Assembly (NCBI GenBank): GCA_965221955.1
Contig: CBDCTA010000029.1
Span: 64,001-128,000 of the forward strand
DNA from: Gammaproteobacteria bacterium
Lineage (GTDB): Bacteria > Pseudomonadota > Gammaproteobacteria > UBA4575
Direction: 5' to 3'
Length of the DNA stretch: 64,000 bases
Made by a program: the position numbers and the translations under genes. Shown here piece by piece: positions 4,957 through 40,005 of this stretch. The first letter of the stretch is position 1; every line of letters starts with the position of its first letter. Under the pieces are notes generated by a model. The model was given only the letters and a program-made list of their open reading frames with translations, made no database searches and was not told the DNA's origin.

Positions 4957-5205
4957 GTTCGTTTTCTTTGCTTGTTCAAAGAAAACGAACCAAAAGAAAA
5001 GTGTTCTTGTAAGATTTAAAATATCAACATTAATACATTAATTACACGTCGTTCCCACCAACTTGCTCTTCGAGTACGTTCGTAATATCTAACAACCTTG
5101 GTTGGCATGATGATGTCATCCAGGCACAACATGCCTAAATCAACCATCCTTGGCTGATTTACCTGCAGTTGTTTCGAGTTTACTCACCAAGTTGAACGGG
5201 ATTCA
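4957..5205. repeat. Multi-hairpin intergenic element (MITE/REP-like)
   Basis: Perfect 14-bp stem GTTCGTTTTCTTTG/CAAAGAAAACGAAC (4957-4990) followed by CAAAAGAAAA; two adjacent hairpins with CATCC loops (5104-5135, 5136-5161). Confidence 0.55.
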
Positions 5206-5216
5206 GAAGTGCTTTG

Positions 5217-5246
5217 AATGCCTGCTTTCGGCCAATAGCGGACATT
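5217..5246 (-). repeat. 30-bp palindromic site, type B (core TGGCCG on gene strand)
   Basis: + strand AATGCCTGCTTT-CGGCCA-ATAGCGGACATT; 7 bp downstream of the stop of 5254..5712. Confidence 0.85.
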
Positions 5247-5253
5247 TAAAACT

Positions 5254-5712
5254 TTAAGAGAATAAAGCCGCAATTGATTGAAGCAATACATCAAAAGCCA
5301 CAATTGCACCGACATCCCTCCTCATCCCATCACTTTGCTTTATTTGATAGTCTCTAGAAGAATATGGCTTTTGCAAATTTGGCATTACATAATTTAATTC
5401 ACCTTTGTCGAAATAAACCCCACAACAGAATTCACAAAAATCTAATTCAATTCCACTAACCATTACAATATTTAGAGGTTTTGTATCACATAGTGGGCAA
5501 TTTCTAGTATCAGACAGATTTTGATTATCTTTAGAATATTGAACTAATTCGTCAATTTTGATTTTACTTTTCTGTGTTTCAATAAGCCTGGAAACACTAA
5601 CGCCACTAAGCCAAACTCCTTTACAGTTCTTGCATTCCTTAATAATTGTTGTATCTACTGGATAGCTAACTGATTTTGTATCCATATTGAATTTACAACT
5701 TGGACAATTCAT
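5254..5712 (-). CDS. Tandem zf-TFIIB-type zinc-ribbon protein (accessory)
   Basis: Two units: CPSC...CKNCKGVWL and CPLC...CEFCCGVYFDKGEL. Confidence 0.8.
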   Translation of the reverse strand: MNCPSCKFNMDTKSVSYPVDTTIIKECKNCKGVWLSGVSVSRLIETQKSKIKIDELVQYSKDNQNLSDTRNCPLCDTKPLNIVMVSGIELDFCEFCCGVYFDKGELNYVMPNLQKPYSSRDYQIKQSDGMRRDVGAIVAFDVLLQSIAALFS

Positions 5713-5783: not shown

Positions 5784-6019
5784 TCATTGTGTATTGTTCC
5801 CACTAAGTCTCCTTCCTATACGGATCAGAATAAAGCCAATTACAAACCCAATCCCACCAATCGTTACAATAGTTACTAGTTCTCCAACTCCCTCACGACC
5901 ACCCGTACCCTGATTGCACCCATTAAATATATCGCTCCAAAACCAAGTCCAATAGTGCCTACAGCAAATACTAACAATGCACCACTACCAATAAAGATAA
6001 TGCAAAATAGCTTTTTCAT
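5784..6019 (-). pseudogene. Small two-TM membrane protein (about 78 aa) with an apparent 1-bp frameshift near 5911; not in the ORF track
   Basis: ATG 6019 gives MKKLFCIIFIGSGALLVFAVGTIGLGFGAIYLMGAI; a shifted frame continues QGTGGREGVGELVTIVTIGGIGFVIGFILIRIGRRLSGNNTQ-stop at 5784. Confidence 0.55.
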
Positions 6020-6043: not shown

Positions 6044-6073
6044 AATATGCGCTTTGGGACATTTGATTGGCAT
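6044..6073 (-). repeat. Degenerate type-A palindromic site
   Basis: AATATGCGCTTT-GGGACA-TTTGATTGGCAT; gene-proximal arm recognisable; 24 bp upstream of ATG 6019. Confidence 0.45.
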
Positions 6074-6210: not shown

Positions 6211-6240
6211 TTAATTATCATTCGGCCAATAGCGGTCATA
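6211..6240 (-). repeat. Type-B palindromic site (distal arm decayed)
   Basis: TTAATTATCATT-CGGCCA-ATAGCGGTCATA; 2 bp downstream of the stop at 6243. Confidence 0.75.
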
Positions 6241-6242
6241 AA

Positions 6243-6681
6243 CTAATTAAGTTTCATCATATCTAAAAAGCCAAGCTGCTTCATTGAAGTATAGTTGTCC
6301 CACTCTACCCATACCTCTACTATAATCCCGTCTTCAATTCGATACATGGCTAAATATTCAAAATCCACATCTTTATGTGAAATTGGATAAGGCCCCATTT
6401 CACCAAGTTGGGTTCCTTTAAATCTATGGCGTTGCAGCAACTTTATTTCCTTCTGCAATTAAATCTAAAATTTGATCTTTAAATTTTGGAAAAATTTTAT
6501 GTTGCGTACGCAAAAACTGAATTAAATCACCTCGGCACCTAACAACAGGTTCGCCAGCAGCAAAGCTATGTCGAATGAATCCATCAGATAAAAGATTATC
6601 AAGCCGGTCCCAGTTGTACGAGTTGATAACATCAGTATATTCGCGAACTAATGCCTTGTTATGCTCGATGTTGTTATCCAT
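6243..6681 (-). pseudogene. SnoaL-like ester cyclase (NTF2 fold), one frameshift near 6432
   Basis: HNKALVREY...LIAEGNKVAA joins RHRFKGTQLGEMGPYP...YRIEDGIIVEVWVEWDNYTSMKQLG if one A is removed from GCAACGCCAT. Confidence 0.8.
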
Positions 6682-6723: not shown

Positions 6724-6753
6724 CATGTCCGCTTTGGGTCGAAAGCGGACATT
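6724..6753 (-). repeat. 30-bp palindromic site, type A (near-perfect arms)
   Basis: CATGTCCGCTTT-GGGTCG-AAAGCGGACATT; 42 bp upstream of ATG 6681. Confidence 0.9.
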
Positions 6754-38411: not shown

Positions 38412-38999
38412 ATGAGAGAGTTTATAAGCGACATTGCATTTACCGATACGGTTAAAAAGATTCAAGAACAAAAAGGCTCTAGAACCATCTATGAACGCGC
38501 AGAAGAATTTGGTGGTTGGGAAAATATCGTAACAACTAAATTAAAAAAGTTTCTCGCTGAACGAGATTCTTTTTATATGTCTACAGTTAATAGTGAAGGC
38601 TATCCTTATATACAACATCGAGGTGGACCGAAAGGATTTTTGAAAGTAATTGATAAACACACCTTAGGGTTCGCCGATTTTTCAGGGAACCGTCAATATA
38701 TTTCTTATGGAAACTTAGAAGATAATAACAAGGTCTGTTTATTTTTTATGGATTATCCCAACAGGATGCGTATAAAACTTTGGGGCACTGCTGAAATAAA
38801 TGAAGAAGACAAAACATTAATTAATGAGCTCACGGTATCAGGATATAAAGCTATTGTTGAGCGTGCGTACCTTATTCATGTAGAAGCGTGGGACCGAAAT
38901 TGTCCTCAGCACATAGTGCCTAGATATACAAAACAAGAAATCGAAGATTTAGAGGTTTGTACTGGATGTGAACCTGAGCACAAGGATGTGCGAATATGA
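38412..38999 (+). CDS. Pyridoxamine 5'-phosphate oxidase-like FMN-binding protein
   Basis: PYIQHRGGPKGFLKV, FADFSGNRQYIS.GN, WDRNCPQHI. Confidence 0.88.
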   Translation: MREFISDIAFTDTVKKIQEQKGSRTIYERAEEFGGWENIVTTKLKKFLAERDSFYMSTVNSEGYPYIQHRGGPKGFLKVIDKHTLGFADFSGNRQYISYGNLEDNNKVCLFFMDYPNRMRIKLWGTAEINEEDKTLINELTVSGYKAIVERAYLIHVEAWDRNCPQHIVPRYTKQEIEDLEVCTGCEPEHKDVRI

Positions 39000-39083
39000 G
39001 TAGCGTCTTGGATGATGCGAACAGATTAGAGTTAGGTAAGTTAAAATGATGCACAGGTTGGGAAATTCTAATCAGATTAATAA

Positions 39084-39113
39084 AATGACTGCTAACGACC
39101 CAAAGCGGACATT
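39084..39113 (+). repeat. 30-bp palindromic site, type A
   Basis: AATGACTGCTAA-CGACCC-AAAGCGGACATT; 19 bp upstream of ATG 39133. Confidence 0.88.
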
Positions 39114-39132
39114 CTCAGGTTCCTAGTTATCA

Positions 39133-39402
39133 ATGAAAGATTTTTCAGTAGCAATATTAATTGGGCTTCTCGTCATTTCTTTACTAGGTATTGGCATAAG
39201 CTATTTTATTTCCATGCTTACAATGATATCTAATCACGATGAAGACAAAGGGTTAGTTATATTAAATTTTTTTCCTGTGTTTAAAACAGATACATTGAAC
39301 GAGAAAGGTGAAAAGGCAAGACGGGTATATAATAAATCGTTATTGGCATTTGCGATTTGGCTAATTGTCGCTTTAGCTTGCTATGTGGTTTTTAATTCTT
39401 AA
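39133..39402 (+). CDS. Small two-TM hypothetical membrane protein (accessory)
   Basis: 89 aa, hydrophobic at both ends; fills the space between two palindromic sites. Confidence 0.7.
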   Translation: MKDFSVAILIGLLVISLLGIGISYFISMLTMISNHDEDKGLVILNFFPVFKTDTLNEKGEKARRVYNKSLLAFAIWLIVALACYVVFNS

Positions 39403-39431
39403 ATGTCTGCTATTGGCCGAATGCGGACATT
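39402..39431 (+). repeat. 30-bp palindromic site, type B
   Basis: AATGTCTGCTAT-TGGCCG-AATGCGGACATT; first A is the last base of the TAA stop. Confidence 0.88.
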
Positions 39432-39456
39432 AATTATAAAAAATTTAAAATAAATT

Positions 39457-40005
39457 ATGCGAGTTGATCCAGTCAGTCATTTAATTGTGGGAGTGCGGTA
39501 TGTACCCTCTCCAAATTTTGATGAGCGACCTGCGGGTACGCAACTATCTTTAATTGTAGTTCATAACATTAGTTTGCCACCGAATGAATTTGGTGGCACT
39601 TACATAGAGCAGTTATTCACGAACCAGCTTGATCCAAATGATCACCCTTACTTTGCTAAAATTGCAGACAAAAAAGTTTCCGCACATATCTTAATTAGAA
39701 GAAATGGCAGCATGGTGCAATTTGTGCCTTTCAACATGCGTGCTTGGCATGCAGGTGAATCGAACTACAAAGGTAAACCGCGTAGTAATGATTATTCGAT
39801 TGGAATCGAATTGGAAGGTGCGGATGAAATACCCTATGAGCTTGAACAATATGCGGTGTTGGCAAGTTTAGTAGATTCACTTCGAATGGCGTACCCGTCT
39901 TTAACGAAAGAAAACCTTGCTGGACATTCTGATATCGCGCCTGGTAGAAAGAGCGATCCTGGCCTAGCATTTAACTGGAAAAAGTTTCGAGATCTTTTGG
40001 CCTAA
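39457..40005 (+). CDS. ampD: 1,6-anhydro-N-acetylmuramyl-L-alanine amidase
   Basis: SPNFDERP, HNISLPP, VSAH, RAWHAG, SIGIELEG, GHSDIAPGRKSDPG. Confidence 0.96.
   Translation: MRVDPVSHLIVGVRYVPSPNFDERPAGTQLSLIVVHNISLPPNEFGGTYIEQLFTNQLDPNDHPYFAKIADKKVSAHILIRRNGSMVQFVPFNMRAWHAGESNYKGKPRSNDYSIGIELEGADEIPYELEQYAVLASLVDSLRMAYPSLTKENLAGHSDIAPGRKSDPGLAFNWKKFRDLLA

Follow-up and report, generated by a model that had tools for sequence, protein, structure and literature searches.

A putative integrase-less gene cassette bounded by two polar 28-bp sites upstream of ampD, and its site family across bacterial classes

Single genes are stockpiled and shuffled, in the textbook case, by integrons, whose attC sites carry an R'' box (RYYYAAC) and an R' box (GTTRRRY), and dif modules are their plasmid-bound analogue, confined to one genus. 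REPs are short extragenic palindromes that are species-specific. As to structured elements, the main text of a preprint describes the TwoAYGGAY elements of Pseudomonadota as multicopy, enriched as divergent doublets and flanked by repeats, and places them upstream of REP arrays in P. fluorescens SBW25 (10.64898/2026.09.22.753630). That main text, in which the words cassette, recombinase and RAYT are absent, terms the expansion 'mobile-element-like' and leaves it without resolution (10.64898/2026.09.22.753630). The sites that we describe below are distinct from integrons, from dif modules and from RAYT-REP systems by every test run.

The window, that is, the whole stretch of DNA that was analysed, comprises 64,000 nucleotides of a contig from a gammaproteobacterial genome assembly. 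Between a PNPOx-like gene and ampD we found five parts, an element L, a spacer S, a site A, an ORF of 89 codons and a site B, and the best explanation of positions 39041-39430 is a single gene cassette, S-A-ORF-B, of an integrase-less cassette system. The parts of the locus are the following.

38412-38999: PNPOx-like gene (Pfam), upstream neighbour of the cassette locus
38975-39040, plus strand: L element, about 66 nt, with two NGGA-loop hairpins, TwoAYGGAY-like and CsrA-site-like
38978-38991 and 39003-39018, plus strand: the two hairpins of L, 5-6 bp each with NGGA loops; AACAGATTAGAGTTAGGT comes next
39041-39084, plus strand: spacer S, with a conserved CAGGTTGGGAAATTC motif and a promoter-like pair
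39058-39063 and 39081-39086, plus strand: the promoter-like pair of S, TTGGGA and TAAAAT, 17 nt apart, the latter running into A
39085-39112, plus strand: site A, ATGACTGCTAA CGACCC AAAGCGGACAT, 11-6-11, 5' end of the cassette
39133-39402, plus strand: cassette ORF, 89 aa, two hydrophobic stretches by eye, stop codon TAA at 39400-39402
39403-39430, plus strand: site B, ATGTCTGCTAT TGGCCG AATGCGGACAT, 11-6-11, 3' end of the cassette
39457-40005: ampD (Pfam), downstream neighbour of the cassette locus

Sites A and B are 28 bp each and consist of two 11-bp inverted arms with an asymmetric 6-bp core between them. A first-pass annotation of this DNA had placed both sites around the 89-aa ORF and had proposed, as an alternative, that B is an inverted and diverged copy of A. 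Both sites are real, each starting one base later than it had them (39085 and 39403, not 39084 and 39402), and, as the proposal holds, B agrees with the reverse complement of A along both arms and at 4/6 core bases. The stop codon was also said to overlap B, which is correct if B is counted from 39402, but with B at 39403 the TAA abuts the site. The ORF matched no Pfam family and only 2 matches were found among 5.8 billion proteins, and a paralogue with 58% identity is the first cassette of an array on contig C23 of the source genome. L begins within the final codons of the PNPOx-like gene, which it overlaps from 38975. The promoter-like pair of S matches at 9/12 positions, and the number of such matches in the region is not above that in shuffles. 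At the other end, the right arm of B holds a -35-like CGGACA, followed after 16 nt by TAAAAT just upstream of the ampD start codon (39424-39451). Because this hexamer sits in the arm of B, the cassette end may contribute to a promoter of ampD.

The source genome (2.69 Mb in 29 contigs, 38.6% GC) was scanned with the outer 8+8 arm bases, allowing at most 4 mismatches, and matches were assigned to a class when the core was within one mismatch of that of A or B. Of the 217 places found, 163 were classed (87 A and 76 B), and the 54 unclassed ones are at chance level, shuffled contigs giving 27 arm-only matches per 1.62 Mb. Only two discrete core classes were present, each at a fixed position relative to the gene. 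Where two sites lay no more than 120 bp apart, they were in 27/30 pairs a B followed by an A on the same strand, their starts being 73 bp apart in 14 pairs and 83 bp apart in 10. A cassette junction is B, 45 or 55 nt, and A, an inverted doublet of 101-111 bp, and cassettes stack head to tail (...ORF-B-S-A-ORF...) with A and B alternating in orientation along the arrays. The polarity noted in the first-pass annotation, with A before and B after the gene, was confirmed when tabulated genome-wide: in 48 intervals of at most 1500 bp in which one ORF covers at least 75%, A lay upstream of that ORF in 41/48, B downstream in 36/48, and the full A-ORF-B order was present in 33/48. A TTGGAW-17-TAAAAT-like register precedes A in nine array junctions read by eye, of 17 listed. 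The ORFs between junctions, about 70-390 aa long in the arrays of this genome, include a HAD hydrolase, a nucleotide cyclase, M23 and M48 peptidases, HSP20, an alpha/beta hydrolase, an SbtA-like transporter, a TPR protein and a Na/H exchanger.

The window itself contains a second, small array on the minus strand, given here in its reading direction.

6725-6752, minus strand: site A heading the array, its arms a perfect palindrome
6243-6681, minus strand: SnoaL-like cassette gene, broken into two ORFs (85 and 71 aa)
6212-6239, minus strand: site B with a degenerate distal arm
6045-6072, minus strand: degenerate A-type site, 9/11 bases in one arm, plus-strand core GGGACA
5876-6019, minus strand: hydrophobic ORF of 47 aa
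5737-5764, minus strand: site A immediately following the short ORF and not preceded by B-S
5254-5712, minus strand: Zn-ribbon cassette gene (PF13453)
5218-5245, minus strand: site B closing the array
5046-5208, minus strand: TwoAYGGAY-like element just past the last B, GGAT-loop hairpins visible

In the window, the arm pattern gave 10 matches (5 sites, counted on both strands) against 3.53 +/- 2.04 in shuffles, none of 100 shuffles reaching 10. The 47-aa ORF is the part that is open of a 'two-TM gene' formerly drawn at 5784-6019, and with this exception the observations of the first-pass annotation were confirmed, its interpretation being partly supported. The two SnoaL-like ORFs overlap each other and cover both halves of PF07366 (6243-6681), and either a frameshift or an assembly error could have split the gene. 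The element at 5046-5208 scored 31.3 bits on the Rfam model RF01731 (E 0.02), under the gathering score of 43, and it is co-oriented with the cassette genes, unlike the inverted L copies at other array ends.

The gene-proximal arms are the better conserved ones, as had been noted: position 25 of A is an A in 64/68 distinct sites, and position 4 is an A in 39 and a T in 22. Some arm mismatches are themselves conserved, position 4, mostly A, facing the A at position 25. Compensating changes between left and right arms were not above shuffles in 68 distinct A and 60 B sites of the source genome nor in 211 foreign A sites, the observed counts equalling the shuffle means in all three sets (for the pair 6-23, 4 against 3.9 in own A sites and 7 against 7.1 in foreign ones). 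Fold z-scores were -2.2 for A and -2.95 for B. Since the arms lack covariation and retain conserved mismatches, half-sites bound by protein on a duplex are favoured over a hairpin within the site, and the arm pattern, judged from sequence, fits what is expected of two unequal protein-binding half-sites on duplex DNA, as in tyrosine-recombinase core sites. At the level of RNA, the -10 of S runs into A, so the predicted transcript would start inside A and an A hairpin could not form in it.

Stacks are preceded by a leader (about 110-140 nt upstream of the first A) that is 75-84% identical at seven loci, and its first 76 nt, the L element, recur in about 60 copies in the source genome (nhmmer). 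A typical platform consists of L, repeated S-A-ORF-B units and then an inverted L. In the 18 L-to-inverted-L pairings listed there were 0-22 sites, and two of these pairings, at C22:45728-45935 and C29:575436-575617, were empty platforms, doublets of inverted L elements just 48 nt apart with only a degenerate site between them. The helices of L covary: on 21 copies 89% of cells were paired, and 29 double-sided changes were counted against 9.1 +/- 2.7 in shuffles, a value that 0/500 shuffles reach, and shifting the pairing partners by 1-3 columns reduced pairing to 6-49%. The two adjacent GGA-loop hairpins with covariation are as in TwoAYGGAY, but neither the window nor 13 loci contained an RF01731 match that reached the gathering score (best score 31.3 bits versus 43), and Rfam searches, run on both regions and on the whole window, gave no match to the sites themselves. 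The loops of L with their flanks (ACAAGGATGT at 38981-38990) resemble the CsrA consensus. A covariance model of L detected it in only 6 low-GC loci of the 100 searched (114 had been fetched), so the link between L and the sites is lineage-limited, as far as this narrow model sees.

Beyond the source genome, an exact 22-mer of A, GCTWWCGACCCAAAGCGGACAT, was found in at least 114 stretches of species-representative genomes from several classes and phyla. Among the matches listed, the carriers include Kiloniella, Lysobacter, Frateuria, Dyella, Noviluteimonas, Caulobacter and Sphingomicrobium, together with Comamonadaceae, Nitrospinaceae and a Nitrospirota bin, at 35-71% GC. Arrays in a single orientation are present in foreign carriers too: in Noviluteimonas caseinilytica (G001), 20/22 pattern matches lie in one 38-kb run in one orientation, and in Dyella single A sites alternate with small genes, a ribosome-binding site and ATG following each site at a distance of 20-45 nt. 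The arrays of Dyella and Sphingomicrobium have A sites only and no S, and in Sphingomicrobium CGACCC and CCACCC cores are mixed. A lay upstream in the sense direction in 16/19 intervals of low-GC foreign loci and in 45/58 of high-GC ones, where ORF calls are unreliable. The cassette system is nonetheless sparse in Pseudomonadota, for in an even sample of 401 genomes 37 had a match to a 14-base core pattern and only about 7 had three or more, lone matches in high-GC genomes being at the level of a reversed-pattern control. Clustering of the ORFs in the 114 foreign loci returned common families only (histidine kinases, LysR, SDR, TIR-TPR). Related ORFs were seen at five foreign site loci of different taxa (L035, L051, L093, L111 and L118), and the two that were scanned with Pfam (L035 and L093, about 630 aa) are TIR-TPR proteins, defence-like in appearance.

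The arrays change their content even between near-identical strains, as they do from species to species within the genus. Contigs C14:1-19227 and C23:1-27587 of the source assembly are two strain variants of one locus, 99.5% identical on the xerD-dsbC side, and as the assembly holds two strain variants, its two xerD copies reflect strain mixture and not paralogy. The flanks are 99.0% and 99.5% identical, whereas the arrays between the outermost A and the outermost B measure 4.1 versus 12.5 kb and have a single cassette in common, of 1492 bp. All alignment blocks between the two end at most 4 bases from a site edge, and the arms of the terminal B, compared between the two contigs, might fit a crossover in the core, one base excepted. 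Paralogous cassettes occupy different arrays, two further pairs sharing 77% and 86% DNA identity. At the ampD locus, L is retained in two relatives: in G019, of the same genus, a degenerate B comes immediately after the upstream gene and L, ampD is next, and 39053-39408 is absent, and in G012 L is followed by another gene without A or B. A third relative, G016, has yet another gene there. The first-pass annotation had raised the prospect of a different gene in the same A/B pair upstream of ampD, and relatives do have nothing or other genes at this place, but those of G012 and G016 do not lie between an A/B pair. At a second platform, on contig C29 (312302-312956), G011 and G013 have nothing, G015 has A-gene-B but no L, G007 has L-B-inverted L, and G008, G016 and G019 have 2.5-4 kb of other content, in the form of arrays. 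No target duplication was visible when filled and empty places of this platform were compared. Four sequencing runs, all of them contigs, aligned to A and B in loose-ended piles, as repeats do, and joints in such runs (for example 39113 to 39401) do not count as evidence of excision because their sides are just about 30 bases long; no circular or excised form of a cassette was observed.

We searched for an enzyme that could act on the sites. No IntI scored over the cut-off (TIGR02249, 265 bits) in 6/6 site-bearing genomes, the source genome and five others, and the search is able to detect IntI, since it did so in 75/121 genomes of the order of Noviluteimonas caseinilytica. The same six genomes, three of them closed or nearly closed, gave 0 matches to the Y1 transposase/RAYT family (PF01797). 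No recombinase was present among the 10 longest ORFs from wide array gaps (of 19 listed in the source genome), no recombinase family recurred in the ORF clusters of the 114 foreign loci, and a search for serine recombinases returned one large enzyme in the source genome, about 10 kb from an array, with no pattern across genomes. The source genome holds ordinary xerC and xerD, each strain variant contributing one of the two near-identical xerD copies, as well as one phage-type integrase of 437 aa. XerC and XerD were the only tyrosine recombinases seen in every site-bearing genome searched, and an array adjoins xerD in the source genome and in 3-4/9 other genomes of the genus. The site substrings retrieved only unrelated primer coincidences from full-text literature, and no earlier description of the site family was found in listings and abstracts on integron-like or palindromic cassettes, on REPs with cassette arrays and on dif modules, a literature in which sequences in figures are unsearchable.

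Our best reading, which we hold with slightly less than even confidence, is that a trans-acting site-specific recombination system exchanges A with A and B with B. A dimeric recombinase supplied in trans would bind the sites as double-stranded DNA, and strand exchange would require equal cores. In a stack, B x B exchange would move a unit S-A-ORF-B and keep the promoter with its gene, whereas A x A exchange would move ORF-B-S, and within arrays both could excise or insert units. Exclusion of A x B exchange, which would invert the gene, would protect gene orientation, and a solo cassette, having no partner site, would be stable unless both of its ends exchange. The first-pass annotation had proposed that non-identical cores block simple excision and permit cassette exchange. 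The block stands for solo cassettes only: an array contains direct repeats of A and direct repeats of B, between which A x A or B x B exchange could simply excise units, so that the idea fits the solos and overstates the block in arrays. As for exchange, the array between the outermost A and B of contigs C14 and C23 was indeed replaced, but homologous recombination in the 99% identical flanks is equally able to have done so. Several points weigh against trans-acting recombination, namely that no recombinase was found in or beside the arrays searched, that the arms are unlike the genome's dif, that an array adjoins xerD in only 3-4/9 other genomes of the genus, that no excised or circular cassette was seen, that B-S-A can also be folded into a long imperfect hairpin, and that A overlaps the -10 and predicted start of the promoter-like motif, a placement that would suit an operator. 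The breakpoints at sites, moreover, would also come from homologous recombination between the B-S-A repeats of about 100 bp or via identical flanks.

Homologous recombination is also the motor of the most serious alternative, which we consider unlikely, a REPIN/BIME-like mosaic in which B-S-A doublets and L would be selfish or structural repeats in variable gene islands, with a polarity that derives from a role in transcripts, in which L would be a target of CsrA and the ends of mRNAs would lie at the sites. The sites are indeed short extragenic palindromes in inverted doublets, and the 27 B-S-A units are doublets of the kind that can form a long hairpin, two of the junction units having fold z-scores of -3.5 and -5.1. 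The motif mosaic is REP-like as well, and L, with two covarying NGGA-loop hairpins and one copy reaching 31.3 bits on TwoAYGGAY, recalls the two-hairpin GGA-loop element to which palindromes are linked in Pseudomonas, multicopy and often in divergent doublets according to the main text of the preprint (10.64898/2026.09.22.753630). On this account, however, it would be hard to place that RAYT is missing from 6/6 genomes, that genes lie between the repeats and the sites cluster in arrays around ORFs instead of being dispersed, that the site sequence is common to several classes and phyla, far beyond the species range of REPs, that L stays below the Rfam gathering score, that the arms lack covariation, and that a transcript predicted to start inside A would contain no A hairpin. 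The overlap of A with the promoter-like motif would suit instead a pair of operators, with a dimeric regulator binding A over the start and B upstream, around the promoter of S, and silencing acquired genes, the 73/83-bp phasing allowing cooperative binding. A conserved -35/-10-like pair ending in A, B-to-A spacings that differ by 10 bp, one helical turn, and arms that act as independent half-sites are consistent with this. We find it improbable as an explanation of the whole, as it leaves unexplained the B after the last or the solo cassette, the A-only arrays of Dyella and Sphingomicrobium that have no S, and the breakpoints at sites, and it comes with no candidate regulator.

A non-autonomous transposon, or mobile insertion cassette, with A/B or L/L' as terminal inverted repeats and its transposase elsewhere, would account for B being near the reverse complement of A, for inverted L elements bracketing platforms and for A-gene-B alone in G015 where G011 and G013 are empty. 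It is nevertheless decidedly improbable to us, given that filled and empty places differ by no visible target duplication, that none of the 18 L-to-L' pairings listed holds a transposase gene flanked by L or A/B, and that stacking head to tail in a fixed register is unusual for transposition. Close in outward form are the sedentary chromosomal integrons, including cassettes without a nearby integrase (CALIN), with B-S-A in the place of attC. The arrays share with them co-oriented small cassettes, diverse and often orphan cargo, strain-variable content and a repeated junction element that can be folded as an imperfect hairpin, here a bulged one of about 100 nt, and the sRNA-Xcc1 beside the array of Noviluteimonas caseinilytica would, if integron-linked as we take it to be, point the same way. 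Yet the absence of IntI from 6/6 genomes is joined by the absence of conserved RYYYAAC/GTTRRRY boxes at the unit ends, which read ATGTCCGC...GCGGACAT, and by several traits foreign to integrons: 28-bp palindromes of double-strand type in two core classes, single ones of which serve as cassette boundaries in other taxa, a promoter-like motif at each junction and many platforms per genome. In the order of Noviluteimonas caseinilytica, moreover, 5 stretches of 18-19 kb with true integron arrays beside IntI contained 0 A/B sites, and we regard the integron reading as very remote.

Acinetobacter dif modules (pdif, XerC/XerD) are also close to the sites described here. They too have 28-bp sites of 11-6-11 that flank the module in inverse and alternating orientation, as A and B do, with arms that are unequally conserved, and the module lacks a recombinase gene. 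The pdif-like arrangement suggested in the first-pass annotation is correct in its alternation, but the arms are unlike the host's own dif (ACTTCGCATAA TATATA TTATGTTAAAT, contig C4), which shares only about 4/11 bases per arm with A and B, for which reason membership in the Xer/pdif family fails. Further differences are that the sites are chromosomal and occur across classes, that two fixed core classes are tied to gene polarity, and that stacking follows a 45/55-nt register. Returning to trans-acting recombination, we tentatively propose, as a possibility somewhat short of an even call, a third bacterial cassette system beside integrons and dif modules, with polar 28-bp exchange sites of two cores and a putative recombinase in trans (possibly XerC/XerD at non-dif sites), circulating in Alpha-, Beta- and Gammaproteobacteria and Nitrospinaceae and, in some lineages, lodged in platforms that CsrA-type TwoAYGGAY elements frame, an orphan RNA family that would thereby acquire a role. 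If true, the system would stand apart from the known cassette systems and have a conserved site of its own, in distant classes and in many copies per genome, that needs no linked integrase, and the known routes of single-gene movement would be widened. It would also provide a testable role for the unexplained multicopy TwoAYGGAY elements, make A and B a natural pair of incompatible sites, as used for cassette exchange in genome engineering, and change the annotation of such regions, which are now read as unannotated intergenic repeats.

Some further observations were made along the way. In G001, a genome without IntI, sRNA-Xcc1 (RF02221), presumably an integron-linked sRNA, is present at L137:4862-4944 with 77 bits against a gathering score of 53, about 2 kb past the last detected site of the 38-kb array. 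The A sites of G002 are forward almost only at 0.6-2.0 Mb and reverse at 2.16-2.69 Mb and 0.13-0.28 Mb, a replichore-like bias that could come from a gene-strand preference or from a single-strand step. BLAST searches of plasmids, phages and E. coli with a 34-nt site query gave weak matches, three of which were inspected; a weak match with 86.7% identity lies at one prophage place in 527/5426 E. coli genomes. On Pantoea and Klebsiella plasmids, single intergenic palindromes were seen with the same arms and the cores TGGCAC and TTACCA (L146:5006-5033 and L147:4005-4032), the Klebsiella one lying 9 nt from the stop codon of a small hypothetical gene.
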